IMG/VR virus record: IMGVR_UViG_3300044712_000823
Location: 1 to 64,000 of that record
Length of the DNA: 64,000 nucleotides
Reading direction: 5' to 3' (one strand)
Source of the DNA: a virus
Taxonomy: Duplodnaviria; Heunggongvirae; Uroviricota; Caudoviricetes
Part shown: in pieces, positions 9,618 to 35,974 of the stretch
Layout of the letters: every line of letters begins with the position of its first letter
Numbering within the stretch: position 1 is the first letter of the stretch
Made by a program: the position numbers and the translations under genes
The notes under the pieces: model-generated
The model's input: the letters and a program-made list of their open reading frames with translations, nothing else
The model's database searches: none
Told to the model about the DNA's origin: nothing

Positions 9618-10175
9618 TTAGAAGAACTCTTTGTTTCTGTCAATTGTATCACCTTTTCTCTTGTAAAAAATATGTCGGCCAATTTTGTCAACTTTTTCCA
9701 TCTTCCAACCAGGATTAACATAGTCGGCGTGGTAGTAGGTTGCTCCATTGGTAACATCTTCCTGTTTATCGTGATTAATAACAATGTTTGTTGCTAGTTC
9801 ACGAATCTCATTATATAACTGACTGTCTTTGATTGTCAAGCGTCTATCGGTAAACTTTTTTTCACAATACCAGGAAAACTGGCACGTTCCGTTAGTTTTT
9901 TGATAAACAACATCGCAAATTGAATCGGCGTAATTTCCCGTCCGCACACGGTTAAGTGTTACAAATGCGACTGCTTTTTTACCTTCAAGCGGCTCATTTG
10001 CCGCCTCAAAATAAATGTTCTCCGCAAGGCACGTGACCTGCTTCTGTACATCTTTTGAGAGGGAATTAAAAGTTGTTTTGAATGGTAACATGGAGTCAAT
10101 ATTGAAATTAATCATACTGCCGCCTACCATAATTGCCGATAGAAGGATAGTCAGAAGTATTGGTTTACTTCTCAT
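9618..10175 (-). CDS. SleB-like cell-wall hydrolase with signal peptide.
   Basis: N-terminal signal peptide. Hydrolase_2 motifs (YFEA...AVAFVTLNRV). Confidence 0.55.
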   Translation of the reverse strand: MRSKPILLTILLSAIMVGGSMINFNIDSMLPFKTTFNSLSKDVQKQVTCLAENIYFEAANEPLEGKKAVAFVTLNRVRTGNYADSICDVVYQKTNGTCQFSWYCEKKFTDRRLTIKDSQLYNEIRELATNIVINHDKQEDVTNGATYYHADYVNPGWKMEKVDKIGRHIFYKRKGDTIDRNKEFF

Positions 10176-10364
10176 TTTTTCCTCTGTAGTTGAACAAGAT
10201 GATGGGTTATTCTGTTACGAGGAAACCCATCGAAACCCTAGTCAGCGTTTAGGCTGCCAATGCGAACTTTTCATCGTTTGCGTTTAGTTTGATTTACTTT
10301 TAACGACTATCTGTGTCGAGTTGTCCACTTCTGTACTTGTTGCCCTGTCGAAACCATGGCTGGC

Positions 10365-10478
10365 CCATCAGAAGTATACTAAACGTGGATCGTCCCTAAA
10401 TGCTTACTGAATTCTACAGTCAGCTTAGTATACTTCTGGTGGACCAGGCGGGAGTCGAACCCGCGTCCAGAACACTTT
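10365..10478 (-). ncRNA. tRNA-like 3' fragment (T-arm plus acceptor 3' half plus CCA) next to a 14-bp inverted repeat. Possible structured RNA.
   Basis: Minus-strand reading GCGGGUUCGACUCCCGCCUGGUCCACCA. No matching 5' acceptor strand. The inverted repeat is CAGAAGTATACTAA...TTAGTATACTTCTG. Confidence 0.25.
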
Positions 10479-10542
10479 TCTAGTTGCTTCATACAACCAT
10501 AGCCGCTAGTATAGCAGCTTTTTATTTAGTTGGCAAGCGTTT

Positions 10543-11685
10543 TTACCAGGGTTTTCCTGTACCGCGAAAATTACTGAAGCTTATTTGTCCGCTTGCTGGA
10601 ATCGTGATGTTTATTATCGCACTCTTCCTAACTTTACATGTATATCCTTGTGAGGACTGTGTAAGTACCTCAAAAGAATATGTTTCACCATTCACTGTGG
10701 TCGATGAGGGTGGTGGCACATTACCAGAAAGACTCAAGTTTGCAACTATATCACCGTTCCAAAAAACTTTTCCGAATGAGGTTCCTGGAGTCGTCAATGT
10801 ATCCCAGAACATACCATATGTCAACTTTCCCGATGCTGCTGATTGGAACTGGTCAATGGAACCCAACAATAAAGTGTTGGAAGAAACGGAAGATAAATTT
10901 GCAGGTAAGCTTATGGTTGAGGGTGTTACGAATGTGCCACCACGGTAATAACTGCTGACACTATATGGTTTTCCTGTATTACCGAAGATTGTCGCCAAAG
11001 TGTCTAGGTTTATTGTTGCATTATCGTCTATTCTATTTCTAAGCCAAATTATGGCCTCCATATAATTTCTAGAATCCGACGACGATTGATTGTACCTTTG
11101 TGGTAGAGGTGATTGAAGGTAATTTATTGAATAAAAATTTCCGTTTGATGAATTTGTGTAACGAGTGCCAAAGGAAGTCAGTGAGCGACTGATTGATCCT
11201 GTGTGTGAGAATACAAAAATTGAATTTGAATTTGAAAGTACAAAGTTATTTGCGGTCGAAGTCGTCGGCTCACCCATACTGAAAATAAACAAATCTCTAC
11301 ATTTCACTAATGTTTTATTTTCTATGAGACCATCTGTCGTAGAATAGACTGTAGGACACACTAATGATGCACCGGAAGGTGGAATTGCAGCTAATGCTAC
11401 AGCCGCATTGTCTGCATTGATTTGTCCAACATCTATACCTTTAGAAGCAACATTTATTAGTGTACCAACTGTTGTTCCCGGAGAACTCGGATCGAAACCG
11501 TTTGCAATCAATGCAATCGTTCCATTACCAGATGTGGTAATTATCGCACTTCTTGCATTGATAAATGTGTTCGATCTGACCAAAAAGTCACCAACAACAG
11601 TTATGTTTCCTGTTATAATAACGTCATTATTGGTTCTCAGATTGTAGTTGGTGTATGTTCCACCTGTTATGGTAGTTGTTGCCAT
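10543..11685 (-). CDS. Tail-fibre/adhesin-like protein (Ser/Thr/Asn-rich).
   Basis: Composition and repeats typical of receptor-binding fibre proteins. Confidence 0.4.
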   Translation of the reverse strand: MATTTITGGTYTNYNLRTNNDVIITGNITVVGDFLVRSNTFINARSAIITTSGNGTIALIANGFDPSSPGTTVGTLINVASKGIDVGQINADNAAVALAAIPPSGASLVCPTVYSTTDGLIENKTLVKCRDLFIFSMGEPTTSTANNFVLSNSNSIFVFSHTGSISRSLTSFGTRYTNSSNGNFYSINYLQSPLPQRYNQSSSDSRNYMEAIIWLRNRIDDNATINLDTLATIFGNTGKPYSVSSYYRGGTFVTPSTISLPANLSSVSSNTLLLGSIDQFQSAASGKLTYGMFWDTLTTPGTSFGKVFWNGDIVANLSLSGNVPPPSSTTVNGETYSFEVLTQSSQGYTCKVRKSAIINITIPASGQISFSNFRGTGKPW

Positions 11686-13717: not shown

Positions 13718-14194
13718 TTAGTGTTTTGCGAAATCTTTATGTGTGAAATTTCTATATTCGCATACTTTCTGATAGGCTTGTTCCGGTGTATTAAAATAGC
13801 CCAATCCTTTACCGTCACAAAATGCCAACCATTTTTGCGAATGTTTGTGGAATGAAACACCTTTATATCCACTTGTGTTATTTACCTGTTTTGTTCTATT
13901 TCTACCATTTTGAGAATAATCACAGGGTCTTAGGTTATCTATCTTGTTGTTTGAAGGATTACCATCAATATGGTCTAATTGCTCAGGTACATCACCAAAA
14001 TGAAATGCATAAATTATTCTATGCAACTTGTAGCAAACACCATCAATTCGTAAATTGTAATATCCGTTGGAAGATTTACTTCCTGCTTTTTGTCCAATGT
14101 TTACTTTATCGGACTTTTTAATTTTCCAATAAAGTTCACCATCACAATAATCAAATAATTGTAATAGATATTCCTTTGTCGGAGTTTTTACCAT
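13718..14194 (-). CDS. HNH homing endonuclease with AP2 DNA-binding domain.
   Basis: HIDGNPSNNKIDNLR. SGYKGVSFHKHSQKW (AP2). Confidence 0.7.
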   Translation of the reverse strand: MVKTPTKEYLLQLFDYCDGELYWKIKKSDKVNIGQKAGSKSSNGYYNLRIDGVCYKLHRIIYAFHFGDVPEQLDHIDGNPSNNKIDNLRPCDYSQNGRNRTKQVNNTSGYKGVSFHKHSQKWLAFCDGKGLGYFNTPEQAYQKVCEYRNFTHKDFAKH

Positions 14195-14493
14195 TCTCTT
14201 GCCATCTTTGTTTTATGACCTTGTTTCAAGGTGTTGCCAGGGACCGACTCTTTGATTCTATTAATAATATATTTTTCAAAGGTAGAATCAGCTTTACCTG
14301 TGCCAGGTGTACTCATGCGAGAGCCATCAGACAACATGGGTAAATCTTCTGAAGCAAACGAACGTTCAAGATGTGGATTGTTTTCCTTGAATGCATCAAG
14401 TTCAGCAATCCGCATAATATGTTCTTCGATTGCTCCTGTATCTTTGTTTCTAAATGTGTACGTTGGCAAAGTTGTGCCTCCAAATTTTGTCAA
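14188..14493 (-). CDS. Hypothetical protein.
   Basis: ORF between two HNH genes. Confidence 0.35.
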   Translation of the reverse strand: MTKFGGTTLPTYTFRNKDTGAIEEHIMRIAELDAFKENNPHLERSFASEDLPMLSDGSRMSTPGTGKADSTFEKYIINRIKESVPGNTLKQGHKTKMAREW

Positions 14494-14902
14494 TATGTTT
14501 CATAAAAAGATCAGTTGTTAATTTGTGTTTCATATAATTACAAGTAGAACAACAGGTCTTTACATTGGTATAAGTATACCCTTTTTTATTATCTATTCGA
14601 TCTAATCCGTTTATTGGAACTTTTCTACCAATTGTATCATGTAATTTACCTTCACGTAAAACTGGTTCTCCTCCACAAATATAACAATTTTTCTGCACCA
14701 ATTCCGACCATTGTTCAAATGTTAAGTCCCAAAATATATTTCTGTGATTGGGATTCGCATCACATCTTTGAGAGATAAAAATTTTGTTTAAATATGTTTT
14801 TGTTGGATCTAAAGTTTTTTCATAAACTTTTCTTGTGCTTTTTTTGTGATTTCTTTGCTCATGTTGTAAATCCATAATTACTCCTAAATTGGTATGTAAC
14901 AT
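14450..14902 (-). CDS. HNH endonuclease.
   Basis: CYICGGEP...NGLDRIDNKKGYTYTNV...CCSTCNYMK. Confidence 0.5.
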   Translation of the reverse strand: MLHTNLGVIMDLQHEQRNHKKSTRKVYEKTLDPTKTYLNKIFISQRCDANPNHRNIFWDLTFEQWSELVQKNCYICGGEPVLREGKLHDTIGRKVPINGLDRIDNKKGYTYTNVKTCCSTCNYMKHKLTTDLFMKHIDKIWRHNFANVHI

Positions 14903-14924
14903 ATATATTTAGGAGTTTTTAGAT

Positions 14925-15512
14925 TTATAGATTAAATACGATAGAAATTCTAGGGTCAACGGATCTATTTGGCACAACTTCGTGATACAACCATGCTGGC
15001 CACATTAGTAATAGACCTGGGTATGGCTGATAATCGAAATGAGATTGTGCATACCAACTATCTTTATCTTTGACATGGAAGAAATAGTCGAAAAAATCCC
15101 GAAACGGTTGATTAGGTAGGAACCTGATGGGTGCAGAACCAGGAGGTGTCTGTAAATAGAAAATACCTGAAATTGTACACTGTGAATGTACATGCTTGGG
15201 ATGGTTACTACCTTCTTTGAAATAGTTCAAGAAGAAATATGGATTGAATTTTGCTCCGTATGGTTCAAAACCTTGTGCAGCTAAGAATTCGTGACCCTTG
15301 TTGATAATGAAATCTCCAAACCCTTGGTATTTTGGATCATTTCTAATATCGATGCCTGTACCATGAGTTGTTCTACCATTGTAGTAAAATGAATCGTTGG
15401 TTTGTTTAGTGTCACTTTCAAAATAATCTTTTACGACAGGCAGAAGAATGTCTGCCCAGTTTTTATGTTCTTCAACACCAACCACCGATGGGAATAATGA
15501 ATCAAGTCTCAT
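14925..15512 (-). CDS. 2OG-Fe(II) oxygenase.
   Basis: HVHSQCTISGIFYL...PIRF. HxD...H architecture. Confidence 0.6.
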   Translation of the reverse strand: MRLDSLFPSVVGVEEHKNWADILLPVVKDYFESDTKQTNDSFYYNGRTTHGTGIDIRNDPKYQGFGDFIINKGHEFLAAQGFEPYGAKFNPYFFLNYFKEGSNHPKHVHSQCTISGIFYLQTPPGSAPIRFLPNQPFRDFFDYFFHVKDKDSWYAQSHFDYQPYPGLLLMWPAWLYHEVVPNRSVDPRISIVFNL

Positions 15513-15771
15513 GAGGTAAAAACACTTTCAATTTTTCGTACTTAGCATCAATTGCTTTATGAATATCTTCATCTGTAATATTTATATCTGTTTCATCAAC
15601 CAATACAGAGATGAGAGCCAAAACATCACCAATTTCAGTGATTAGTGCCTGTTTGTTAGTTACGCCTTGCCATTCCGCATTCAATCCAAAACGATTGATT
15701 TTGGAAATGGCTTGAATGACTTCTGCACATTCTTCAGTCAATACACCCATAACCTGTTTAAGATCACGCAT
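15502..15771 (-). CDS. mazG: MazG-like nucleotide pyrophosphohydrolase.
   Basis: EECAEVIQA...EIGDVLA motifs. Confidence 0.7.
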   Translation of the reverse strand: MRDLKQVMGVLTEECAEVIQAISKINRFGLNAEWQGVTNKQALITEIGDVLALISVLVDETDINITDEDIHKAIDAKYEKLKVFLPHET

Positions 15772-15862
15772 AAAAATCCTTTAAATAATATAAATAGGTG
15801 TGGATCACGGTACGCCAATACCCATCCACTCTATGTCCATATTCTATAACAGGAGACACAGC

Positions 15863-16507
15863 TTGTCAAGTATATATACAACGAAAAGAAAAAGAAGAAC
15901 CGTAAATTACCGCAAAATTTACGAACAACATTTTGGTCCAATTCCTTATGATGAATTTGGAAGAAGATATGAAATACATCATATTGATGGCAATCCAAAT
16001 AACAACGACATAAAAAATCTTAAATGTGTTTCAATAAAAGAACATTATGAAATACATTATAAACAAAAAGATTGGGGTGCTTGTTTATTAATTGCGAGAG
16101 CGATGGAAATTACACCAGAAGAAAAGAGAACCTTAGGTAGACTTGCGGCGATTAAGCGTTTAGAAGAAGGTAGCCACAATTTTCTGAATAATGATTCAAA
16201 CGAAAATAGAGTTAAAGCAGGAACACACAATTTTCTTGGTGGTGAAATAGGTGGAAGAACAAGCCGCAGGCGAGTAAAAGAAGGAACTCACATACTTTTA
16301 GGTGGTGAAGTTCAGAGAAAACAATTACTTGACGGTAAAAATAAACTTGTTGGCGGTGAATTGCAACGAGAAAGTGCTAAGAAATTATTGCAGGAAGGTA
16401 GACACCATTCACAAAAAGTGAATGAATGTCCACACTGCAATAGAGAAATTTTAGGTAATGGATTTTATCGCTATCACGGCGATAGATGTAAGTTCAAGAA
16501 AGATTAA
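15863..16507 (+). CDS. HNH homing endonuclease. Proposed TTG start after AGGAG.
   Basis: HHIDGNPNNNDIKNL. Leader shared with the GIY-YIG gene at ~20.9 kb. The ORF track extends to 15800. Confidence 0.65.
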   Translation: MSSIYTTKRKRRTVNYRKIYEQHFGPIPYDEFGRRYEIHHIDGNPNNNDIKNLKCVSIKEHYEIHYKQKDWGACLLIARAMEITPEEKRTLGRLAAIKRLEEGSHNFLNNDSNENRVKAGTHNFLGGEIGGRTSRRRVKEGTHILLGGEVQRKQLLDGKNKLVGGELQRESAKKLLQEGRHHSQKVNECPHCNREILGNGFYRYHGDRCKFKKD

Positions 16508-16968
16508 TCAATTCTTTCCTTGTATTGACGAATGGGTGTGTATGGGAAAGTGATAGGAACTGCACTATCACCATTAGTGAAATACGATTTGTATTTTTTA
16601 CCGGTTTCTTTATCTGTGTACCAATCATAAAAAATAATTCCTTCAGAATCATATGCTTGGCCATTGAATCTGTCAGCCTGTTTGAATATGTGACTGCATC
16701 GTTTATTTTGCATACAGTAGCCGTGGTCTACCCACTCCCAATCTTCACCAGTCAGTGGTGTAATAGGCTCAAACTTGGCCAACTTTTCAAACAAATTAAT
16801 AGCATATGGTGCAGTGGATCCAGAATGTCCTTCTTCGTCAAATATTTCAATCAACTTCAATACATGTTTGCAGATCATCTCCTGCATTTCATCATCGAAT
16901 TTTCCATTCTCGTCAGTCCAACCTGCGGCTCTAAATTCAGCCTCTGCATGTTTAATTAAATTACTCAT
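16504..16968 (-). CDS. Hypothetical protein.
   Basis: ORF. Confidence 0.35.
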   Translation of the reverse strand: MSNLIKHAEAEFRAAGWTDENGKFDDEMQEMICKHVLKLIEIFDEEGHSGSTAPYAINLFEKLAKFEPITPLTGEDWEWVDHGYCMQNKRCSHIFKQADRFNGQAYDSEGIIFYDWYTDKETGKKYKSYFTNGDSAVPITFPYTPIRQYKERID

Positions 16969-17216
16969 TCTTCTTTCCTTATTTCAGTTGCACCACATTG
17001 ATTACAGTCAAAGATTGGATAGCCAACAGGGTTCGTATCACGAAAATTCCAGTGGTGACCCACCTTCTCACACCGTTCACGCAATTCTTTCTTTGCCGGA
17101 TAATAAACAGTCTTGTCATATTCATCCATCAACTCTGACATTTTCTGCCGGCGCGCTCGTTCAATCAGTCCCTTTTCTTTCCAGATTTTGGTTGATTCTT
17201 TTTCTTCATCATTCAT
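16965..17216 (-). CDS. Hypothetical protein (CxxC).
   Basis: ORF with overlapping stop/start. Confidence 0.3.
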   Translation of the reverse strand: MNDEEKESTKIWKEKGLIERARRQKMSELMDEYDKTVYYPAKKELRERCEKVGHHWNFRDTNPVGYPIFDCNQCGATEIRKEE

Positions 17217-17512
17217 GTAATTAATCCATATTCTTTCAAGAGTTGACGAAAATCATTTGTCATAGTAGAACCAGTTTTTGCAATAAAAAGTTGAAGTATA
17301 ATCTGATCTATGTCATTTCTATCTCGCCAAGTTCCGACAAACCAACCAGTGGGATTTGAAAAACCCTTCAGTGTAACAACATCAGAAACATAAATGAAAT
17401 GTGACCTTGTTATTGAGGTGTTACCACTAGTATACATGTCCGACATTTTCTGAATGATATAATATTCAGCTTCTCTCGCATTGCCTGCAATTATAAAATA
17501 TTTGTCAGACAT
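17213..17512 (-). CDS. Hypothetical protein.
   Basis: ORF. Confidence 0.3.
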   Translation of the reverse strand: MSDKYFIIAGNAREAEYYIIQKMSDMYTSGNTSITRSHFIYVSDVVTLKGFSNPTGWFVGTWRDRNDIDQIILQLFIAKTGSTMTNDFRQLLKEYGLIT

Positions 17513-18053
17513 TGTACCACTCTGGGATTGGTCGTGAATTTACTTTACCTTGCCAAGTAGCAAAGCCGCGTTTTGAAATGTTGTAATAGTTTCGGTAAGA
17601 TGCAAGAGAATCTCCGGGAACTTTTACATCATCAGGCATTGCAGGTGTAGGTGGGAAGAATTCACCTTTGGCCATATTGTGTGGAGGCACATACAGAATA
17701 TCATGCAGACGCGCACATGCATGGATTTTACCATAACGATAGGTGTATTCGTTGCACAGGTGATACCACATGCGATAGAGCCAATTGTAGTTGGTTCGAT
17801 TTGCACGGCACCAGATAGCCGACGGATGATTGATGTGAGAAGCTTTCATTAGTTGTTTCTCACGTTCATCATTTAGACGCCAACGTTTGATACGCCGACC
17901 ATTTTCAGTTAGTTCGGTGTATTCTTCGCCATCAAGAATGCGGTGTGCCGTAGACATGAGTTGTGCATACTCAATAATCATTTTGACAACGTGCTTAGAC
18001 AGATGCATTTCTGCACAAGTTTTTGCGTCAGGATCAAGGTAAAAAATATTCAT
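17505..18053 (-). CDS. Hypothetical protein.
   Basis: ORF. Confidence 0.35.
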   Translation of the reverse strand: MNIFYLDPDAKTCAEMHLSKHVVKMIIEYAQLMSTAHRILDGEEYTELTENGRRIKRWRLNDEREKQLMKASHINHPSAIWCRANRTNYNWLYRMWYHLCNEYTYRYGKIHACARLHDILYVPPHNMAKGEFFPPTPAMPDDVKVPGDSLASYRNYYNISKRGFATWQGKVNSRPIPEWYNV

Positions 18054-18068
18054 GACAATTCAATTTTG

Positions 18069-18632
18069 TTATTCAAAAAGTGTATTTTCTGCTGGACCTA
18101 ATGTACGATAAACGGTTGCTTTACTCACATTAAATTTTTCCATGATTTCTCGTATCATATAGCCATCATTTCTCATTTGTTTAATTTCTTCTATTTGCTG
18201 TTCAGCCAACACTTTTTTTCTTCCAAATTTTATTCCTCGTTTTTTTGCCGTTTCTATACCATCAGCTTGATTTTCTTTACGTAAATCATTTTCAAATTCG
18301 GCAAAAACACTCAACATATTAAAAAGCAAATTTCCCACAGGTGTAGTTGTGTCGATGTTTTGGTCAGTAACAATAAGTGCGATTTTTCTTTCTTCAAGCA
18401 TGTGTTTAATGTTTAACAAATCTCTCACATTTCTTGCCAGTCTGTCAATCTTCGTAACACATATGGTATCGCCTTCACGCACAAATTTCATCATTTTTTT
18501 GAATTGTGGTCTATTCATGCTTATTCCAGATACACGCTCTTTGAAAACTTTTTCACAATCTTTTAATTTTTCCAATTGTGCATCTAAATTTTGACCGACA
18601 CTTGAAACCCTAGCATAACCAATTTTAGACAT
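18069..18632 (-). CDS. Small serine recombinase (resolvase/invertase family).
   Basis: GYARVSSVGQNLDAQ catalytic motif. C-terminal HTH. Confidence 0.8.
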   Translation of the reverse strand: MSKIGYARVSSVGQNLDAQLEKLKDCEKVFKERVSGISMNRPQFKKMMKFVREGDTICVTKIDRLARNVRDLLNIKHMLEERKIALIVTDQNIDTTTPVGNLLFNMLSVFAEFENDLRKENQADGIETAKKRGIKFGRKKVLAEQQIEEIKQMRNDGYMIREIMEKFNVSKATVYRTLGPAENTLFE

Positions 18633-18637
18633 TTCTA

Positions 18638-18838
18638 TTACCTCAATTCTGGTTCTTTTTCAAAACATTCAAAACAAACTGCATCATACTTTGGTCCCAT
18701 GCAGGTGGCAATAGCACCGTCGCAATATCTACACAAAATAAATGCATGTGTCACAATTTGATCCTTGCGGGGACCATACAATTTATAGAAACCCTCGTCA
18801 CGTTCAATGTAACCGATGTGTTCTCTTTCTTCATTCAT
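18638..18838 (-). CDS. Small Cys-rich protein.
   Basis: CRYCDG...CFECF. Confidence 0.3.
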   Translation of the reverse strand: MNEEREHIGYIERDEGFYKLYGPRKDQIVTHAFILCRYCDGAIATCMGPKYDAVCFECFEKEPELR

Positions 18839-19116
18839 ATTTTTTGGATTTGTATGCGTTCTACATCTGTCCAGGTTTGAACTACAGTTCCTTCTCCATG
18901 GTTATCATGTTCCCAGACTCTATATTGCAATCCAACTTTGGTAATATTTCCGTTTTCGTCCAAAAATTCTGCCACACGAAAATCATAAGAAAGAGGCTTA
19001 GCAAACACCACCGACGACTGTGGAATTTCGGCTCTAAAAGAGCCACCTGGCTGATATGGCAAAGGTGGCATATTGAACGTGGTCGTTACAATTTGTGTGT
19101 TTAATTTTGTTGTCAC
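18835..19116 (-). CDS. Hypothetical protein.
   Basis: ORF. Confidence 0.3.
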   Translation of the reverse strand: MTTKLNTQIVTTTFNMPPLPYQPGGSFRAEIPQSSVVFAKPLSYDFRVAEFLDENGNITKVGLQYRVWEHDNHGEGTVVQTWTDVERIQIQKI

Positions 19117-19913
19117 GGTACAATATATCCTTTAACTTCAAGGTCTTCCACATCCATTTCAAAATAGGGATAAAGTATTGTAGCAGGAACCGGATCAATT
19201 GTCAATACCCGGTCTCGGATATTATCATGCCATTTACTTTCCAACTCAAAATAACGCCATTTGTACAGGAAATTAGCCCAGGACAAACCACGGTATTGAT
19301 GTGAGCGACCTTGTTCGATGTATCTTTCATCGTTAGGTTCCGGTCTCTTGGCTAGATGTAGTGTGGTATTCCAAACACGACCGTGTGCAAAATCATTGAT
19401 GGATGAACGATCTGGTAAATATTTGACAGCACGGAGGAAATAATCACCTTCACCGAAGCCATAGTGGAATCTTTCATCCCACATTCCAATTTTTTTGATT
19501 GCATTTGGTGTGTATGCACATACCATATCGCCCGCATCATCCGCATAGAAGTCCTGTTTTTCCATGACCGCAAGAAGTCTGATAATCCAATCTCTTTCCC
19601 AAAGAGTGTCGTCTTGTGCAGTGACGACAATATCGGCATCAGGATTTTTTAAATCACGAAAGCCATGAATGATGGCGGTATTCCACATACGCGCCAACAT
19701 AGCAGTAGCAAAATCAGGTTGTGCTGCATTGTGTATTACTTTCACATGCGCCTGATAAACCGGATTGATTGAAAAGTTAGAATGATTGTTGATTACATTC
19801 ACATGTATATCAACTCCTTGTGGTAAATGAGAAAAACCCTCAAATAGAGTCGTTAGATTTCTATCGAGGGCTTTCTCATCTTGCCAAGTCAAAATATAAA
19901 TTTTGATTTTCAT
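19113..19913 (-). CDS. Putative glycosyltransferase (GT-A-like, DxD?).
   Basis: VVTAQDDTLW. Weak. Confidence 0.3.
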   Translation of the reverse strand: MKIKIYILTWQDEKALDRNLTTLFEGFSHLPQGVDIHVNVINNHSNFSINPVYQAHVKVIHNAAQPDFATAMLARMWNTAIIHGFRDLKNPDADIVVTAQDDTLWERDWIIRLLAVMEKQDFYADDAGDMVCAYTPNAIKKIGMWDERFHYGFGEGDYFLRAVKYLPDRSSINDFAHGRVWNTTLHLAKRPEPNDERYIEQGRSHQYRGLSWANFLYKWRYFELESKWHDNIRDRVLTIDPVPATILYPYFEMDVEDLEVKGYIVP

Positions 19914-20063
19914 ATCACCAATGACGTATTACGCCAGCTATAATAAACATGTTTGTAATTATGTAACTTGCAATGATGATGGTTCGAATGATTGCAATTT
20001 TATCTGCTTCACTGTCATCGTTGCTGGCCTTTTCACCTAGTGATTTAGCCCATAGTCTCCACA

Positions 20064-20351
20064 TTATAACATCCTTATAAGTCCAATTGTGTCAATTGTT
20101 GTCAACAAGATATAGTTAGCCAACATGCCAAATGATTTGCGAGTAAATGCGGCCCAAGCATACAAAGCACACCCAGTAATCCAAATAGGATAGAGTGTAA
20201 GCAAAGGAGGGTTGGGTACTGTGAGAGCCATGGTGATAGCACAAGCGATACTAATGCCCCAAGCAAGCAACTCAACACAAAAACGAAAACGATTAGAGTT
20301 CCAGTCACTACGTATCCAGTCAATAGTTGGCTTCAAAATATCAGTTAGCAT
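20064..20351 (-). CDS. Membrane protein.
   Basis: Three predicted TM segments. Confidence 0.35.
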   Translation of the reverse strand: MLTDILKPTIDWIRSDWNSNRFRFCVELLAWGISIACAITMALTVPNPPLLTLYPIWITGCALYAWAAFTRKSFGMLANYILLTTIDTIGLIRML

Positions 20352-20557
20352 CGACCATCCATGTCTACTTCTTTTCTTTCATTGGTGTAATATTCTTTCA
20401 CGGGAACAATTTCCAATTCGCCGTCAATTTCATAACCACAACCACTCAAGAAATTTTTGAAGTAACCCAACACATCATCAAGTTGGTCTACTTCAAATTC
20501 CATTGTAGTCTTAGGACTCCCAAAGCCTACGAAACTTGATTCAAATTTAAATTTCAT
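20345..20557 (-). CDS. Hypothetical protein.
   Basis: ORF. Confidence 0.3.
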   Translation of the reverse strand: MKFKFESSFVGFGSPKTTMEFEVDQLDDVLGYFKNFLSGCGYEIDGELEIVPVKEYYTNERKEVDMDGRC

Positions 20558-20874
20558 TTTTTCTCACCAAAAACGGGAACTTCCAATTCAACGCCTTTGC
20601 CTTCTTCTTGTGGTTTTACCACCGACACAGGTTTATCTTTTTTAGGGAAACGTTTCTGAATATCATCAGCAGTTACAGTTTGCATTGCAAATTGTTTGAA
20701 TTGTTCATAATCTTCTTTAACCTTCAGTGTTCTAACACCATTTACGGATGCAGAATCATTGAAACTTAACACACAACCGCCTGCAATCAGTGGTGCAATT
20801 TCCAACACCATATCCAAGTTGATGATGACTTTACATTTTTTTTCTTCACTTGTAATTTCCACAAAAAGTGACAT
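20554..20874 (-). CDS. Hypothetical protein.
   Basis: ORF. Confidence 0.35.
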   Translation of the reverse strand: MSLFVEITSEEKKCKVIINLDMVLEIAPLIAGGCVLSFNDSASVNGVRTLKVKEDYEQFKQFAMQTVTADDIQKRFPKKDKPVSVVKPQEEGKGVELEVPVFGEKK

Positions 20875-20969
20875 AATTTTTCTCCAGAGTAAATAAATAA
20901 AAGGTGCCAGTCACGATGCGTCAACATCCACTGGCTCTATGTCTAAGATTTTACAACAGGAGACACAGC

Positions 20970-21509
20970 TTGTCAAGTATATATTCAACAAAATTTTATG
21001 TCTATGCCTACCTGCGTGAAAACGGTACACCTTATTACATCGGTAAAGGTACCGGCAAAAGAGCATGGAGACACTTTAAAAAAGAAATAAAACCACCGAA
21101 AGATAAAAGTAAAATAGTCATATTGGAAAATAATTTGACTGAAATTGGTGCCTTTGCATTAGAAAGGAGATATATTTTTTGGTATGGCAGAAAAGATAAA
21201 AATACTGGCATACTGAGAAATAAAACTGACGGCGGTGACGGTGCTTCTGGTAGAAAATTTAAAATGACAGAAGAACAAAAAAGAAAAATATCCAACGCCA
21301 AAAAAGGTAAAATACCACCATGCATTTTTATCCGGCGTTCATATGAAAATTCCGGAAACCCAAAATCCAAAAAATGTATATCACCTGATGGAAGAGTTTT
21401 TGATTGTGCTAAAGAAGCCGCAATTCAAATGAATATTGGTGTCAAGGCATTACAAAAAAGATGTAGAAATGGTGCAATGGGTTGGTCATATGTAATTGAA
21501 AACAACTAA
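20970..21509 (+). CDS. GIY-YIG homing endonuclease. Proposed TTG start after AGGAG.
   Basis: FYVYAYL...YYIGKGTGKRAWRH motif. The ORF track begins at a GTG at 20904. In-frame ATG at 20916. Confidence 0.65.
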   Translation: MSSIYSTKFYVYAYLRENGTPYYIGKGTGKRAWRHFKKEIKPPKDKSKIVILENNLTEIGAFALERRYIFWYGRKDKNTGILRNKTDGGDGASGRKFKMTEEQKRKISNAKKGKIPPCIFIRRSYENSGNPKSKKCISPDGRVFDCAKEAAIQMNIGVKALQKRCRNGAMGWSYVIENN

Positions 21510-21817
21510 CAAAACCAAAAGAAAAACGCCGGCAAAAAGGAAAAGTTTTTTCCTACGCCTGCGTTTTTCGATTTCTTTGTATAACTTCACCTGATCCAGA
21601 AAAAATTCAAAATTATCCATAATGTAGCCATCTAATGTGATGGTATATTTAGCAGTAGAGTCGGGTGTTAATTATACGAGAAATAATTTTTATTTCCTGT
21701 TCCGCTAACTTATAGCCAGGAAATCTTAGTAGGACATTTTTCCATTCACTTTTTAATTTCTTCAACTCACTTGTAGGTAAAGAAATTAAATGTGAAAGTT
21801 TCCTGTCCATCATATCA

Positions 21818-22030
21818 TCAGTTGAAACTTTTAAAAGCGGTTTTCTCCACTTGGTCTTTTACATAAGAACCAACATCTTCAACTGATTTGAGAATCTGTT
21901 TTGTGAATGTCGTTTCTGCATCAACGAATGAATTAAGAGTCTCACGCACCTTTTCTTCAGTAATGAAAGAATTAACGAAGAATTTCTTTGAGTTTTGAAC
22001 TGTGTCGATAAATGTGTCGTATGCAAACAT
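21818..22030 (-). CDS. Hypothetical protein.
   Basis: ORF. Confidence 0.3.
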   Translation of the reverse strand: MFAYDTFIDTVQNSKKFFVNSFITEEKVRETLNSFVDAETTFTKQILKSVEDVGSYVKDQVEKTAFKSFN

Positions 22031-22141
22031 GGTTTTCTCCTAAAAAAGCGAGGTTAAAAATAGAAACCCGATTGGCGTTTCTGTCTCTATTATATATGCT
22101 TTTTATGTTGCAGTGCAACATTTTTTTCTAGAGTGGCAATA

Positions 22142-22771
22142 CTAAAATGACCATCCACGTTTAAGAAATTTGTCTGTGCGGAACCGATTCGGTTCAACAT
22201 AACCAGTTTTCACCAATTTTTTGTTGTGAATTGCATCCATCTGTGCAACAGAAATATGAAATTTGTCGGTCATTAGATCGTAATATGGCAGACAATGCAC
22301 AAAGTCAAAAGTTTTTCTCATTGACTCATAATCTGCAATGGTAATAAACTGTGCTTTGTTTTTCATGGTGATTGCATTTGCAGTAATTATTTTGCCTAAG
22401 ACACCGGCATCTTGACCACCATAGTTGTCTTTATAATCCGCAATGAAATCACTATATCTCGTGGGAAATATTTTTGCTGAAAAATTTGCATCTTCCGGTG
22501 TTTTAAACCAAAAGTCATAATCGTTTACAGGTTCATCGTGATACAAAGAAGAAATACTTGAACCAGACAATACACATCTTAGTCGTGTATGTTCAACCAA
22601 ATCTACAGGCATCCGACTTGGCTGTGAAATGTATACTGCATTAAAAAGAACTTGAATGTGATGTTTGATTTTGTCTTTCAAAAATAATGCATTATCTTTA
22701 AAATTATCAATTAACATAATTGTATTGTATGTGTCGTTTACATTCATTGACCGAGTGACATTTGTGACCAT
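22142..22771 (-). CDS. Hypothetical protein.
   Basis: ORF. Confidence 0.4.
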   Translation of the reverse strand: MVTNVTRSMNVNDTYNTIMLIDNFKDNALFLKDKIKHHIQVLFNAVYISQPSRMPVDLVEHTRLRCVLSGSSISSLYHDEPVNDYDFWFKTPEDANFSAKIFPTRYSDFIADYKDNYGGQDAGVLGKIITANAITMKNKAQFITIADYESMRKTFDFVHCLPYYDLMTDKFHISVAQMDAIHNKKLVKTGYVEPNRFRTDKFLKRGWSF

Positions 22772-22964
22772 TCACATAAATTACTTTAGGTGAATACACA
22801 AGAATTTCGCCAGCAGACATTTTCAGACGGTAGAAAGTTTTACCTTTCTTGTCAGTCTCTTTGCTTTTAATTCCGGAATAATTGTCTGCGAGACCTGCCC
22901 ACATGAGCATTTCCCGCAGTTCATCCGATACGAGTTTTCTAAACCAATTTGCATTCATATTCAC
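22707..22964 (-). CDS. Hypothetical protein.
   Basis: ORF. Confidence 0.3.
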   Translation of the reverse strand: MNMNANWFRKLVSDELREMLMWAGLADNYSGIKSKETDKKGKTFYRLKMSAGEILVYSPKVIYVNGHKCHSVNECKRHIQYNYVN

Positions 22965-22993
22965 ATCATATCATAAAAAAATTGCATTGGCAA

Positions 22994-23191
22994 TCAATTT
23001 TCGTTTAGGATTTTCCTAAACTTTTCAAACTCATCTTTTTCCAGGAAGAATTCAAACTTTTTATGCAGACCATCGGGATCTTTAGCACCAGAAAAATTGG
23101 TCAAAAATACCACATGCTTCATACCACGTACATCTTGAACATTCAAGAAATATTTGTAGATAGCATTATCACGAGAAATCAAATTCATCAT
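22994..23191 (-). CDS. Hypothetical protein.
   Basis: ORF. Confidence 0.3.
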   Translation of the reverse strand: MMNLISRDNAIYKYFLNVQDVRGMKHVVFLTNFSGAKDPDGLHKKFEFFLEKDEFEKFRKILNEN

Positions 23192-24348
23192 ACAAAACCC
23201 ATCTTTCTTTCAATTGAATTTTTCAGTTCACGGGTATTACGCTTTTCTTTCTCAAAGAAAATATCCGCAATAGACCACTTGTCACGCTGACCATTCAGTT
23301 TAGTTCCAACTTTTACAGCCAGTTTCTCTGCCTGTTCTTGGTTCAGTTCCTTGAAATGCACAATGTCATAACAACGACCAGGACGCACCAATGCAGGATC
23401 AATATCATTGATAGACGGCAGGTTAGTTGAGAAGATAAGTTTCTTGTTGCGTGTAGTCACAAGACCGTCACCAACATTCAGAAACTTATGCATCATCGTA
23501 TTGCCCTCTTTACGTGCCTTCAGAAACATATCTGCATCCTCAAGCACCATCATAGATTTATCACCTTCGATAAACTGTGCGAACACATAATCTTTCTCCA
23601 AAACTGCTGCATCATAAGATACAATAGCAGAAGATTCCGTATGTTGCAGCATACCACGAATGAACGTGGTTTTACCAGTACCTGGCGGTCCAATCAGAAG
23701 AAGAATAGATGCATTCGACTTCATAAAATCATCATAGTAATCTGCGAGAGATTGACCATTGAGGAACGGATACATTTCTTCCACGGGCATACGCTCATGT
23801 TGTAGCGGAATCTCAATAGATGCACCATCATTTGAATACAGCCATTCGATATGGTTAGTAACGAATTGGAAATTCTCAGTGAAAAGAGATTGATATTCAT
23901 CACCAAATTCTTTATCACCAGTCAGTGTGATATTGATATGCGTAGAATGAATGCGATACTGCAACCAATTCATTCCAACATCATCGAACAGATAGCCGGT
24001 GTCCCTACCCACCTGGACGATACGGAGGTCATGTTGCAGAACAGGAAGAAACTCCACCCATTCCTTGTGTGTACAATAGATTCCAAAATCACGTGTGAAA
24101 GTTTCCAGGTTTGCAGAATTACGTGCCTCTAGAATCTTAGATTGAAAGAGATCCGTAATATCAGACAGACCAAGGAAAATTTCATTTTGTGCTTTGTTCA
24201 TAAAGTCATAACCTCTCAAAGTATAATGTTTCAGCATTTTTCGTTTTGTGTTTTTTCGCACACGAACACGCCGGCGAGTAGTTCGGTAACCATCGAGTGC
24301 AATTGCTGCATTGATCCTACGTATAATTGATTGTGCGTTTTCGCTCAT
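23188..24348 (-). CDS. AAA+ ATPase.
   Basis: Walker A (LLIGPPGTGKTT). Walker B (MMVLEDAD). Sensor region. Confidence 0.65.
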   Translation of the reverse strand: MSENAQSIIRRINAAIALDGYRTTRRRVRVRKNTKRKMLKHYTLRGYDFMNKAQNEIFLGLSDITDLFQSKILEARNSANLETFTRDFGIYCTHKEWVEFLPVLQHDLRIVQVGRDTGYLFDDVGMNWLQYRIHSTHINITLTGDKEFGDEYQSLFTENFQFVTNHIEWLYSNDGASIEIPLQHERMPVEEMYPFLNGQSLADYYDDFMKSNASILLLIGPPGTGKTTFIRGMLQHTESSAIVSYDAAVLEKDYVFAQFIEGDKSMMVLEDADMFLKARKEGNTMMHKFLNVGDGLVTTRNKKLIFSTNLPSINDIDPALVRPGRCYDIVHFKELNQEQAEKLAVKVGTKLNGQRDKWSIADIFFEKEKRNTRELKNSIERKMGFV

Positions 24349-25121
24349 TTTTTCGTTTTTAACTTTGTCAAAATTCTAGAATCAATGGCACCAATATTGT
24401 TTAAATCCTTATCTGTATAATCATTTTTCATCAGAACATACTGCATTGCTGCAATACGTGCGGATCGTTTACAGTCAGATTTTACTTGAACCCATGGGCA
24501 CATGGCAATAGAAGTTTCTCGGAACATACGTTCTTTGGCTTCTGTGTACTCATCCCATAAAGTTTGACTCGCTTTATCCACCGGGCTCAGTTTTCCAGTT
24601 TTAAGTGGATGTTTATCTCTTTGTTCAAATCTTCTGTTTTGTTCATCCCGTGTTACGGAAAACCAAAACTTAATGATGTTAATGTTTGCTTCAACCCAAA
24701 TCTTTTCAAGCTTAGGACATTCTTTGTAGAATTGGTTCGTTTGTTCTGGTGTACAGAAACCCATAACAGGCTCAACGCCTGCACGGTTATACCACGACCT
24801 ATCCCAGAAGGTGATTTCACCTGCACGTGGAAATTGATTGATATAACGCTGCCAATACCATTCTTGTTTCTCCAATTCAGTGGGTTTATCCAACGCAACG
24901 ACACGTGCGCCGCGAGGATTAATGTGTTCCATGAATCTTTTGATTGTGCCACCTTTACCTGCGGCATCACGACCTTCGAAAATAACTATGTGTTGGCTTT
25001 TGGTTTCTCGCACATGGTTTTGCCATTTGAGTAATTCAATTTGAAGCAGATACTTCTTACTTTCATACTCTTTTGTTGGCATCACCACGCGACCAGAATC
25101 TTCAAACTCAATTTTTTCCAT
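24345..25121 (-). CDS. Polyphosphate kinase 2 (PPK2).
   Basis: FEGRDAAGKGG Walker A and PPK2 lid motifs. Confidence 0.8.
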   Translation of the reverse strand: MEKIEFEDSGRVVMPTKEYESKKYLLQIELLKWQNHVRETKSQHIVIFEGRDAAGKGGTIKRFMEHINPRGARVVALDKPTELEKQEWYWQRYINQFPRAGEITFWDRSWYNRAGVEPVMGFCTPEQTNQFYKECPKLEKIWVEANINIIKFWFSVTRDEQNRRFEQRDKHPLKTGKLSPVDKASQTLWDEYTEAKERMFRETSIAMCPWVQVKSDCKRSARIAAMQYVLMKNDYTDKDLNNIGAIDSRILTKLKTKK

Positions 25122-25302
25122 CTAACATAAACTTCTTTAGATAATCTTCGACTTGTTCGAACTTTTCCATTGTAGACAATTTATCTTCAATCGCATACAT
25201 TGGATCCAACGTCAGAGTTACATTCAGTAGCGGATGATCCTTTGCACGAATTGTGATTGTATATGGTTTATTTTTCTTTTCCATCTTTTTGGCCCTTTGC
25301 AT
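25108..25302 (-). CDS. Hypothetical small protein.
   Basis: ORF. Confidence 0.3.
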   Translation of the reverse strand: MQRAKKMEKKNKPYTITIRAKDHPLLNVTLTLDPMYAIEDKLSTMEKFEQVEDYLKKFMLDGKN

Positions 25303-25711
25303 TTTTGGATGCAGAGTTTATACCTTCTTCGATATAAGAATCTAGCTTTTGTTCGATCAGTGTCAGAACTTTTTTACCAGTTTCTTGCACCTTTTCATTC
25401 TCTGAAACCTTTTGTGTTGCATATGCACCAACCATAATATATGCAGTTTTTTCGGAAGGAATAAAAATATTAAGAATGGCGGCGACAATAGCCGTGATAC
25501 CAATACGCCGAATTACTTTGTCTAGATTCGACCGTTTTTCGGTTTTATCTTTAATAGTTCTCTCTGAATCCCAACTATTAATGCTCAATTCAATTGAACG
25601 ATACAATAACATGAATATTATTGACATTCCGCCGACCATCATAGTTGAGCCGAGCGTGAATGTCAATGGCGTCAGCAGAGAAATGCCATAAACAAGTAGA
25701 GCCAGATCCAT
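25268..25711 (-). CDS. Membrane protein (partner of SPFH protein?).
   Basis: Multiple TM helices. Downstream of the SPFH gene. Confidence 0.4.
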   Translation of the reverse strand: MDLALLVYGISLLTPLTFTLGSTMMVGGMSIIFMLLYRSIELSINSWDSERTIKDKTEKRSNLDKVIRRIGITAIVAAILNIFIPSEKTAYIMVGAYATQKVSENEKVQETGKKVLTLIEQKLDSYIEEGINSASKNAKGQKDGKEK

Positions 25712-25712
25712 T

Positions 25713-26507
25713 TTATTTCGGCATCATCAGTGCGTTGAAGTTGGCAGGCACAACAATTGTCTGTACTTTACCAGCTTTAATACCTTCGGAGATATTAATC
25801 ATAGCTTGTGCCTGCATGTAAGCAATACTCTGTGCACCTTGATTACTCAGTGCCTGCATACGCTCTGCTTCCATCTTAGCAGTTTTAACTTCAACTTCTT
25901 TTTGCTTCAATTCGTTTTTAGCACGAACCAAATCATTAGCACTAGCAACAACACTGTCGGCAGGAACAATATTACGAATCAACACTTGACTAACAGTCAA
26001 GCTACCATCAAGTTTTTCATCAGTCAACGACTTTTGAATCTGTTCCCGAACAGCTTGTTCCATTGCTTGGCGACTGTCTGCCATATCCAATGCTTCATAC
26101 TTTCGCGCTTCTTTGTAGATAGCATTGCGAGCATTCTGCACAATATAGTTATACATCAAGTAGATATCACCATTGTGTCGAGCATGAAATGCCTGACTCT
26201 TGGTACTATACAGCTCCGCAACCTGTGATTGATTAATATTATAGATAACAACCGCATCGAAATCTTTCATTGTGCTATTATCTTTAGCAACAGGCGTCAT
26301 GTCGTCCAGTTTAACATTAACGTCTTTGATGGGAAAAGTTAGAACATCACCAATCATCGTCTGATTAAACGAACCAGGCAGAAGTTCACCAGATTGAACC
26401 TGCTTATCAAAACCAACACGTACACCAACTTCACCAGTTTCAATGCGGGTGCATCCCGTGGCAAGTACACCGGCGGCAACAAGAACTGACAGACTAAAAC
26501 GTTTCAT
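25713..26507 (-). CDS. SPFH/band-7 (prohibitin/HflC-like) lipoprotein.
   Basis: Start set at MKRFSL (GGAG RBS). Lipobox LATGC. SPFH domain plus coiled coil. Confidence 0.7.
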   Translation of the reverse strand: MKRFSLSVLVAAGVLATGCTRIETGEVGVRVGFDKQVQSGELLPGSFNQTMIGDVLTFPIKDVNVKLDDMTPVAKDNSTMKDFDAVVIYNINQSQVAELYSTKSQAFHARHNGDIYLMYNYIVQNARNAIYKEARKYEALDMADSRQAMEQAVREQIQKSLTDEKLDGSLTVSQVLIRNIVPADSVVASANDLVRAKNELKQKEVEVKTAKMEAERMQALSNQGAQSIAYMQAQAMINISEGIKAGKVQTIVVPANFNALMMPK

Positions 26508-26518
26508 AAAACACTCCA

Positions 26519-26695
26519 TTAAAACAAAATAACAATTACAGCAAGGACAGAAAAAGCCAGTATAGCACAAACGGCAGAATACGTCAAGAGTTTAATAAGT
26601 TCCCATTTTTCTTGGTTTGTCAATTTTCGAATTGTTGGAATTCCTACAAAAAACAATGCAAAGAAAACCAAATAAATCAGGAAAATGCGTGCCAT
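26519..26695 (-). CDS. Small membrane protein (58 aa).
   Basis: Hand-translated ORF filling the gap. Two TM segments. Confidence 0.3.
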   Translation of the reverse strand: MARIFLIYLVFFALFFVGIPTIRKLTNQEKWELIKLLTYSAVCAILAFSVLAVIVILF

Positions 26696-32667: not shown

Positions 32668-33047
32668 TTCAATTCAATCCTTGCACAGAATTTATCTTTC
32701 CAACTACGATAAGCCAGACGCACAAAACCAGGTTCACTGTCTTGCATTTTAACTTTACCTGCCATAGTTCCGAACATGATACCAAAGCCGGCGACCACAC
32801 CAATTAAAATTTGTGATGCTGTATTCAGTTCATGTCCCCAAAATAGCCAACTGAAAATGTTGGCCACTGAAACCAATACCCATATTGTAAGTGATACCCC
32901 ACCAGCCAAAGACAACAGAAATAGTGATGTACCAAAAATTACATAACGAATATATGAACAAATATCAGTTGCAGAATATACACGTTCTTCGCCGAAATTG
33001 GCCAACCAATAGTGCCACGATTTTCGCTTCAATTCAATTGTTTTCAT
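32664..33047 (-). CDS. Membrane protein.
   Basis: TM helices. Confidence 0.4.
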   Translation of the reverse strand: MKTIELKRKSWHYWLANFGEERVYSATDICSYIRYVIFGTSLFLLSLAGGVSLTIWVLVSVANIFSWLFWGHELNTASQILIGVVAGFGIMFGTMAGKVKMQDSEPGFVRLAYRSWKDKFCARIELK

Positions 33048-34386: not shown

Positions 34387-34387
34387 T

Positions 34388-34776: not shown

Positions 34777-34786
34777 AATATACTCC

Positions 34787-35215: not shown

Positions 35216-35229
35216 TTTATTTACCTCAA

Positions 35230-35858: not shown

Positions 35859-35887
35859 TTTGTGTCTTTCGCTGAATCAATGCATGA

Positions 35888-35916: not shown

Positions 35917-35974
35917 TGTGGAGCAATAGTTCTCCAGCACTGCGCTGGAGTTAGAACCTTTTACTTACAAAATC

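Follow-up and report, generated by a model that had tools for sequence, protein, structure and literature searches.

A small serine recombinase without a recognizable local site, carried as a single-gene accessory cassette by T4-like phages from fresh waters

Temperate phages, plasmids and transposons characteristically carry site-specific recombinases, and T4-type lytic phages are known for lacking them. Here we describe rec, a gene coding for a small serine recombinase in a 64,000-nucleotide stretch of a T4-like phage genome (positions 1 to 64,000 of the IMG/VR record IMGVR_UViG_3300044712_000823, Caudoviricetes; hereafter the window). The described systems with which it invites comparison are the Tn3/gamma-delta resolvases (TnpR), the Hin/Gin/Cin/Pin invertases of Salmonella, Mu, P1 and e14, the integrase of the phiRSM phages, the homing genes seg and mob of T4-like phages, and a large group of bacterial and plasmid enzymes that emerges as the sister of the phage clade.

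TnpR shares with rec the fold, the catalytic residues, the size and a GRKK-type arm preceding the helix-turn-helix (HTH) domain; it is, however, only ~33-35% identical (85 bits for gamma-delta resolvase), and rec is accompanied by neither the three-subsite res nor the transposase and transposon ends of the Tn3 systems. The Hin/Gin/Cin/Pin enzymes are likewise phage-borne and of the same length and architecture, with Gin being the best match in the PDB, but they are ~38% identical to rec, which falls outside their subgroup and lacks an adjacent invertible segment or repeats of the gix/hix type. Moreover, phages with Hin/Gin-type enzymes are temperate, whereas rec resides in a lytic, T4-like phage. 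The phiRSM filamentous phages of Ralstonia use a small serine recombinase of the resolvase/invertase type as an integrase, with attP beside the gene (PMC4471427). This Int is, like rec, a small phage-encoded enzyme put to a use other than inversion or resolution; it is ~35% identical, and the adjacent attP and integrated host copies of phiRSM have no counterpart seen here. The seg and mob genes resemble rec as single AT-rich genes present or absent at a fixed slot, flanked by conserved genes, of the hyperplastic early region, but they code for GIY-YIG/HNH nucleases rather than a serine recombinase, and rec shares the strand and operon of its neighbors and gave no sign of homing. The sister group, exemplified by WP_011153800 (Synechocystis pSYSG), WP_012305516 (Picosynechococcus pAQ6), WP_011988313 (Vibrio vulnificus pC4602-2) and MGO8753835 (a metagenome-assembled genome of Gallionellaceae), is 50-58% identical in full-length comparison, shares the two-domain architecture of rec, and differs in that about a quarter of its members have a GTATAC-centered upstream site, of which there is none in the window. 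As a defining feature of each was sought and is missing here, rec, as arranged in the window, belongs to neither a Hin/Gin invertase, nor a Tn3-type resolvase, nor a phiRSM-type integrase system.

The product of rec, which begins MSKIGYARVSSVGQNLDAQ..., displays both hallmarks of the small serine recombinases, namely an N-terminal domain with the serine nucleophile near residue 10 and the conserved Arg/Asp residues (R8, D67, R68 and R71 in gamma-delta numbering) and a C-terminal HTH in a protein of 187 amino acids (~180-200 expected), and it matches PHROG 125 ('DNA invertase', 3.5e-62). Alignment with Gin (4m6f), Sin (2r0q) and gamma-delta resolvase (2gm4) revealed that all catalytic residues are kept, without any truncation: Y6, R8, S10, Q14, E32, S35, R41, D63, R64 and R67 are in place, with E32 being the Sin-like equivalent of D36. 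Y6, R8, S10, Q14, R41, D63, R64 and R67 are invariant in 16 sequences of the clade, down to 56% identity, as are the acidic residues of the E-helix. The recognition helix within the HTH_7 domain reads SKATVYR. No other resolvase-like open reading frame (ORF) is found in the window. Thus, the two Pfam domains and the residue alignment agree with the first-pass annotation, which had called an intact 187-residue serine recombinase with a catalytic motif and a C-terminal HTH; the loss of the catalytic serine or a truncated domain would have spoken against that call, and Ser10 is present and both domains are of full length. Pairwise dN/dS values (nonsynonymous over synonymous rates) for rec range from 0.07 to 0.23 among five lineages, comparing the window with four others, with synonymous sites near saturation; rec is under purifying selection. 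We conclude that it is a genuine, selected small serine recombinase of the resolvase/invertase superfamily and, as a protein, an ordinary new member of this well-known superfamily. The purifying selection on its catalytic residues suggests that the enzyme is probably active in conservative site-specific recombination.

The identical protein is also encoded on an 88.7-kb contig from a lake metagenome, and relatives with 85, 74, 67, 60 and 56% identity could be traced to their contigs, all of which are T4-like. The traced rec-positive contigs carry genes for gp32, gp59, gp33, PhoH and RNase H, and all six traced members of the clade come from uncultured T4-like contigs of lakes; the closest of these relatives, L001, has a rec that is 85% identical. 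A scan of IMG/VR with a single rec protein gave no match, and the JGI collection of metagenome contigs yielded only relatives of at most 54% identity, none of them T4-like. The clade is so far known only from uncultured freshwater T4-like (Kyanoviridae-related) myoviruses. In a neighbor-joining tree, which is without support values, 15 proteins (P0001-P0015) are monophyletic, and their sister is the large group from bacteria and plasmids, with a BLOSUM distance of 0.47-0.50, as against 0.64-0.71 from the clade to Sin, Gin and gamma-delta resolvase. Gin itself scores 94 bits at a distance of 0.71, which equals that of gamma-delta resolvase, and rec does not cluster with the invertase subgroup. 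Hence, of the earlier description as Hin/Gin/resolvase-like, the small serine recombinase stands, while the tree and the distances place it with bacterial and plasmid relatives and outside the Hin/Gin subgroup. To judge from the tree, rec derives from the same stock as these relatives, in which a palindromic upstream site recurs.

The phage itself is T4-like by its gene content: the window codes for gp32, gp59, the gp33 late co-activator, gp2, gp51, baseplate and gp5-like proteins, rIIA, rIIB, NrdA, NrdB, a gp61-like primase, a gp46/47-type exonuclease and PhoH. By gp32 (~60% identity) and shared synteny its nearest cultured relatives are the Kyanoviridae, a family that includes T4-like cyanophages, the Pelagibacter phage HTVC008M and the Methylophilales phage Melnitz; no near-identical relative was found among GenBank phages. 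This gene set and kinship support the earlier reading of a T4-like lytic phage, and no lysogeny module was seen. The accompanying statement that T4-type phages normally lack such enzymes holds as far as it was checked: no T4-like phage was among 60 GenBank phage records picked at even intervals from the 407 that have a rec homolog, rec is absent from Melnitz and HTVC008M in the syntenic region examined, and the literature searched contained no report of such a recombinase in a T4-like phage. Separately, four Vibrio phages of 129-140 kb (NC_020863, which is PWH3a-P1, MG592529, OX241423 and OZ195773) have matches to the catalytic domain only, covering residues 1-137 or 4-153 at 28-35% identity; judging by these matches, resolvase-domain genes occur in other large phages too.

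Searches for a site in cis covered the 64 kb of the window, from a genome likely exceeding 140 kb, and about 10-20 kb of each related phage. The spacer 5' of rec measures a mere 5 nucleotides in the window, and no conserved sequence was found upstream of the gene across the lineages, the others having a lineage-specific promoter or terminator instead; a three-subsite res of about 120 bp immediately upstream is likewise not to be found. Inverted repeats that could define a plausible invertible segment are missing within 10 kb on either side of rec and in the entire window, as are inverted-repeat pairs at the other rec-positive loci, and a de novo scan of the 64 kb recovered no recurrent palindromes or near-palindromes of 26-30 bp. 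No inversion or other structural variant was seen in any lineage or in the independent assembly, which is 100% collinear with the window over 14875-25907. There are further no transposon ends around rec, no transposase family among the neighboring genes scanned from ~13.7 to 26.5 kb (excepting a few small unscanned ORFs), no att-like sequence or repeat at the ends of the cassette, no tRNA-like fragment near it and no conserved operator-like motif. The checks proposed by the first-pass annotation, for gix/hix-type inverted repeats, an invertible segment or a res site, thus came back empty for the window and the related loci, in keeping with its remark that no substrate could be assigned.

Several candidate sites were considered and set aside. 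An inverted repeat around the adjacent gene for a T4 endonuclease V (DenV)-like protein (17526-17552/18035-18061; 21/27 matches) has the classic layout of an invertase substrate, but none of the other rec-positive loci has it, not even that of the 85%-identical L001, and it is therefore ascribed to chance. A 46-nucleotide direct repeat bracketing rec (15841/20948) is instead a duplicated near-consensus sigma-70 promoter with a shared 5' untranslated region. The repeat family between 35.8 and 46.5 kb, which occurs in both orientations and might pass for a shufflon, consists of early promoters of the form TTGCCA-N16-CATAAT, which have no dyad symmetry, are oriented with their genes and often follow a hairpin. 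Phylogenetic footprinting for 12-mers common to the lineages recovered only words of the rec coding sequence.

The sister group offers a model of the site that the phage loci lack. On comparing the upstream 250 nucleotides of 146 bacterial and plasmid relatives with 233 controls, TGTCTC was seen in 70 of the former versus 17 of the latter, and GTATAC in 40 versus 4; the 40 relatives, about a quarter, hold 41 GTATAC-centered sites. In the closer relatives the site is a 26-bp palindrome, GTCTCAnAAAGTATACTTTnTGAGAC, centered 83-120 nucleotides before the start codon and accompanied by extra TGTCTC words in a non-coding upstream region of 140-540 nucleotides. This palindrome reads as a textbook site I with a central AT, and its half-site TGTCTC resembles the consensus of the res half-site, TGTCYNNTA. 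The recognition helix of these relatives, SKA[ST][VI]YR, is nearly identical to that of the phage enzyme. A position matrix built from 15 sister-group sites, which themselves score 19.5-32 bits, reached at best 10.2 bits in the window, which is at chance level (shuffled sequences 9.4 +/- 2.4, maximum 15.7), and at most 10.2 bits at all related loci of the phage clade; half-site dyads in the window are also at chance level (1 vs 0.77 expected). An enrichment of AGTATACT (4 vs 0.45 expected) was discarded, for two of the copies are arms of a helix in the transfer-messenger RNA (tmRNA) and none lies in a full site.

The predicted half-site is scarce in the window (GTCTCA 9 vs 27 expected; GTCTYA 19 vs 53). 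Taken alone, this scarcity was rejected as evidence that the phage avoids the site in its own DNA: among 2080 hexamers it takes 49th place, and it is explained by the depletion of its sub-words, and many restriction palindromes are far more strongly avoided in the window. Between phages, the observed/expected ratio of GTCTYA is 0.25-0.43 in the rec-positive ones versus 0.60-1.02 in rec-negative relatives; when some 1750 hexamers are ranked without bias, GAGACA/TGTCTC come out as the second to fourth most depleted in the rec-positive phages. The contrast is specific to TGTCTC (0.33 vs 1.06) and is not shared by AGTCTC, GGTCTC and CGTCTC. We regard this depletion as a lead that is suggestive only, a hypothesis and not a result. 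As an observation in its own right, several palindromes of the restriction type are absent from the window, namely TGATCA (0 vs 66 expected), AGATCT (0 vs 30), CTTAAG (0 vs 26), TGCGCA (0 vs 26), CTGCAG (0 vs 19) and AGTACT (0 vs 17), with TGATCA missing from most related loci as well; these zero counts are consistent with restriction avoidance.

All six lineages are collinear in the genes surrounding rec, and in five of them rec is immediately upstream of the DenV-like gene, with a spacer of 0-15 nucleotides or an overlap of stop and start codons; a 74-codon gene stands between the two in L001/L002. This neighbor has the DenV fold and a confident structural model (Table); a Foldseek search of the PDB gave no match for it. 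On the other side, rec is preceded by three genes that are shared only with L001, save that of 266 codons, which is also found in L095, and for which scans of Pfam, PHROG and other libraries gave no family match. They form the variable side of a slot, bounded by the conserved homologs of g20064 and g19915 and by the DenV-like gene, that holds different small genes in each lineage. Rec had initially been placed between small Cys-rich ORFs: upstream, the 66-residue ORF (18638-18838) is indeed Cys-rich, but downstream lies the DenV-like protein of 182 residues. The further suggestion that the 266-residue product (19113-19913) might be a glycosyltransferase found no backing in Pfam, PHROG, NCBIfam or PADLOC.

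Two relatives, L094 (158 kb) and L095, have the same synteny, with a DenV-like gene 73-76% identical to that of the window, and yet lack rec; their empty sites hold no remnant of it, and in L094 the g20064/g19915 homologs directly abut the DenV-like gene. On most shared genes these two are nearer to the window than are the rec-positive L003, L006, L009 and L014. The latter four are 50-54% identical to the window in the DenV-like gene, 56-60% in gp59 (L094, 68%) and 64-66% in a PD-(D/E)XK nuclease (L094, 74%); in PhoH, L006, L009 and L014 are 47-62% identical, as against 82% for L094 and 55% for L095, the last over 58 residues only. The composition of rec is atypical: in the window its GC content is 32%, and that at third codon positions (GC3) is 23%, like that of four homing-endonuclease genes nearby (21-24%) and below that of the direct neighbors (32-37%). 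In L003 and L006 rec has the lowest GC3 among the genes compared (those of ~260 nucleotides or longer; z about -2.7). The GC content of the bacterial relatives is 41-49%. Thus, with its presence or absence at a fixed slot among close relatives sharing synteny, and an AT-richness like that of homing-endonuclease genes, rec behaves as a single-gene accessory cassette.

A functional pairing of rec with the DenV-like gene was considered and rejected, as the partner is a core gene of Kyanoviridae-type phages that also occurs without rec: the DenV-like protein has thousands of close homologs on T4-like contigs and is kept in cultured Kyanoviridae lacking the recombinase, and the recombinases of other phages are without a DenV-like partner. 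Hence, the adjacency is positional and does not indicate functional coupling.

The operon g20554...rec...Tad3 is headed by a sigma-70-type early promoter (TTGACA-17-TAAAAT, 11/12 matches to the consensus), and a second copy (TTGACA-17-TAGAAT) heads the next operon (MazG...). Both are part of a repeat of ~100 nucleotides that comprises the promoter and a shared leader (5' untranslated region) of ~60 nucleotides. A sigma-70-like promoter also lies directly upstream of rec in L003, and on the strength of these two promoters, that of the operon at 20976 and that of L003, we take rec to be an early gene. The operon is flanked by a homolog of Tad3, the inhibitor of type I Thoeris, and by a gene (22142-22771, minus strand) whose precomputed mark as Gad2 (anti-Gabija, PF26128) was not reproduced by a local Pfam search. 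A known defense or anti-defense family for rec itself was considered and dropped, as PADLOC gave no match. The four homing-endonuclease-type genes, which lie within 8 kb, are listed as HNH+AP2, HNH-like, HNH_3 and GIY-YIG-like with NUMOD3. Those on the plus strand read through the minus-strand promoter repeat, from which they acquire a shared N-terminal string, 'YNRRHSLSSIY', that probably does not exist as protein. At 14875-14901, between the HNH-like gene and one for a 2OG-Fe(II) oxygenase, two independent Logan contigs from this phage meet with an overlap of 27 nucleotides at a near-palindrome (TAATTACTCCTAAATTGGTATGT / ACATATATATTTAGGAGTTTTTA); this assembly break may reflect a polymorphism of presence and absence in the population.

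Taken together, we consider it somewhat probable that rec is an orphan recombinase cassette of T4-like phages that acts in trans on DNA outside its own region. We call it an orphan because the palindromic site I of the sister group is missing and there is neither a res array nor an invertible segment; action in trans is posited on the ground that no site exists in cis. The phages carry only the ORF, as an AT-rich single-gene cassette present or absent at one fixed slot. By homology, dimers of the enzyme would bind a dyad site of ~26-28 bp via the HTH domain, two dimers would then synapse, and Ser10 would introduce staggered double-strand breaks at the central dinucleotide, upon which half of the tetramer would rotate by 180 degrees and the ends be rejoined. 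Such action would take place early in infection. The likelier targets would be sites of the res type, be they on plasmids or islands of the host or on co-resident mobile elements, with a distal locus of the phage being less likely; early expression, the missing site, the accessory and anti-defense neighborhood (Tad3) and the half-site lead together incline us to a target outside the phage.

Several points weigh against this proposal. The catalytic activity of rec, its class of target and its biological role are what we infer, and no substrate was identified anywhere. A distal phage site could possibly lie outside the 64 kb examined and the ~10-20 kb from the relatives. The DNA specificity of the phage enzymes may also have drifted away from that of the sister group, which would render a search with the sister-group matrix blind. 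As for the half-site, its depletion in the window vanishes under a Markov model of maximal order, while the contrast between rec-positive and rec-negative phages involves small counts and non-independent lineages and comes mostly from two distant rec-negative phages, the ratio in the close rec-negative relatives being only 0.70-0.80. A bolder version of the proposal, which we hold to be unlikely, is that rec serves as a weapon or tool against non-self DNA, having kept the ancestral specificity for res sites of the TGTCTC type while its own site was lost. Through early expression it would act on host plasmids bearing res, genomic or defense islands, or parasites of the phage, and the phage genome would be purged of the half-site in the way that restriction sites are purged. 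In a variant of this, rec would be a 'homing' serine recombinase, the first of its kind, and spread from one T4-like phage to another as a free-standing cassette.

Other explanations share part of this evidence. One, to which we accord a small but not negligible chance, regards rec as a selfish free-standing mobile gene akin to seg and mob of T4, which would transfer itself between co-infecting phages, with no benefit to them, by cleaving or exchanging DNA site-specifically in the slot that precedes the DenV-like gene. The polymorphism of a single gene at a fixed slot among close relatives, an AT-richness on a par with the window's four homing-endonuclease genes and the homing endonucleases flanking the operon all fit this account, as does a comparison of the window with L003, in which rec is 74% identical against 44-60% for the flanking genes, hinting at exchange between lineages. 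Such conservation may, however, merely reflect constraint on the fold; conservative site-specific recombination by itself yields no gain in copy number; the ends of the cassette bear no repeat or att-like sequence; and we know of no serine recombinase that acts as a homing enzyme. Rather unlikely, in our assessment, is a Gin/Cin-type invertase that flips a distant segment of the phage, such as the C-termini of tail fibers, to diversify host range. The label of PHROG 125, Gin as the top PDB sequence match and the position of the tail-fiber genes outside the window speak for it, but known invertase genes adjoin the segment they invert, whereas the surroundings of rec are collinear in six lineages and in an independent assembly, the 64 kb lack both recurrent palindromes and inverted-repeat pairs, and the bracketing repeat is not conserved. 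Moreover, Gin and gamma-delta resolvase are equally distant from rec, whose sister group has an upstream palindromic site, and there are sister phages that dispense with rec.

An improbable alternative is that rec has been domesticated as a DNA-binding regulator, for example a repressor of early genes, and no longer recombines. The lack of a substrate pair and the early expression of rec would suit such a role, and resolvases naturally autoregulate at res; against this, every catalytic residue is invariant across 16 sequences reaching down to 56% identity, which is not expected of selection for binding alone, and no operator-like motif is conserved near the gene. It is more doubtful still that rec acts on the replication products of the phage, resolving its concatemers or circular multimers at one res site in the genome, as might be imagined from the likeness of the sister group to plasmid multimer resolvases in its upstream site I and plasmid context. 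T4-type phages package by the headful from concatemers and need no resolution to unit length, no res-like site exists in the 64 kb or the related loci, and rec is dispensable in the closest relatives. Least credible of all is a small serine integrase that would insert the phage into a host gene and excise it. The phiRSM phages employ an enzyme of this type in just this manner (PMC4471427), homologs from Ralstonia phages with about 35% identity are frequent among the matches, and the phage has a tmRNA gene, a classical attachment target; but no att-like sequence adjoins rec, whereas the attP of phiRSM is adjacent (PMC4471427), and rec-negative relatives including Melnitz carry the tmRNA too, with no lysogeny module in evidence. 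The best 80 matches from bacterial genomes are at most 53% identical, and none of these loci represents an integrated T4-like copy or has T4 markers or a DenV-like gene.

The tmRNA, for which ARAGORN gives the tag peptide ANDEKFALAA, fills a seeming intergenic gap between a Hydrolase_2 gene and an ORF of 380 codons, and that of Melnitz occupies the same syntenic position. Hairpins in L009 and L014 suggest that it is conserved across the clade, and its beta type hints at a betaproteobacterial host. Elsewhere in the window, at ~42500-47800, lies a GC-rich island (47-56% GC vs a background of about 38%) with long spurious ORFs in all frames and five copies, 350-520 nucleotides apart, of an element of 56-73 nucleotides that can be read as a TTGCCA-N16-CATAAT promoter; the island has the look of DNA that is foreign or evolves fast. 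At least six tandem paralogs of about 70 residues (MNERIYEL...FAELII.EC...HFGVE; 33045-41190, minus strand) account for many of the direct-repeat families in the window. The coordinates of these and other features are collected below.

Table. Positions of rec, its surroundings and other annotated features in the window
Feature	Position	Strand	Details
gp5/VgrG-like baseplate protein	4326-5639	+	18-nt (6-aa) KPEPAP-type tandem repeats, about 4672-4841
tmRNA gene	10158-10550	-	Rfam beta_tmRNA, 136 bits vs gathering score 84
Homing-endonuclease-type gene	13718-14194	-
Homing-endonuclease-type gene	14450-14902	-
Homing-endonuclease-type gene	15800-16507	+
Second promoter copy	15841..15869	-	TTGACA-17-TAGAAT
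Tad3 homolog	16504-16968	-	Pfam PF25185, 7.7e-35
DenV-like gene, downstream neighbor of rec	17505..18053	-	182 aa; confident model, pLDDT 89.5
rec, small serine recombinase	18069..18632	-	187 aa, ATG start, intact ORF
HTH_7 DNA-binding domain of rec	18099..18224	-	aa 137-178; Pfam PF02796, 1.1e-10
Catalytic (resolvase) domain of rec	18234..18623	-	aa 4-133; Pfam PF00239 envelope, E=2.3e-41
Ser10 nucleophile codon	18603-18605	-
Three lineage-specific genes upstream of rec	18638..19913	-	66 aa (Cys-rich), 93 aa, 266 aa; tblastn synteny
g20064 and g19915 (small membrane ORF)	19915..20351	-	conserved; upstream boundary of slot
Homing-endonuclease-type gene	20904-21509	+
Early promoter of the rec operon	20948..20976	-	TTGACA-17-TAAAAT
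Polyphosphate kinase 2	24345-25121	-	PF03976, 3.7e-83
SPFH/Band 7 protein	25713-26519	-
CobS-like AAA ATPase	27118-28311	-	PHROG 249
725-aa protein	50764-52941	-	PHROG 459 ('peptidase', 1.1e-207)

What is unusual here is the T4-like lytic context of the enzyme, the loss of the cognate site and the coupling of a homing-endonuclease-like cassette with purifying selection, which are undescribed in the literature searched. A selected and intact clade of recombinases without a cognate site points to roles for such enzymes beyond integration, the inversion of adjacent segments and the resolution of multimers. The 26-bp site of the sister group provides a testable model for DNA binding by rec, and the rec-positive and rec-negative sister phages constitute natural controls. 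Should the target lie in the DNA of hosts or competitors, rec would represent a novel kind of interaction between phage and host; should it instead be a distal site in the phage itself, this would, to judge from the literature searched, be the earliest report of programmed rearrangement in a T4-like phage.

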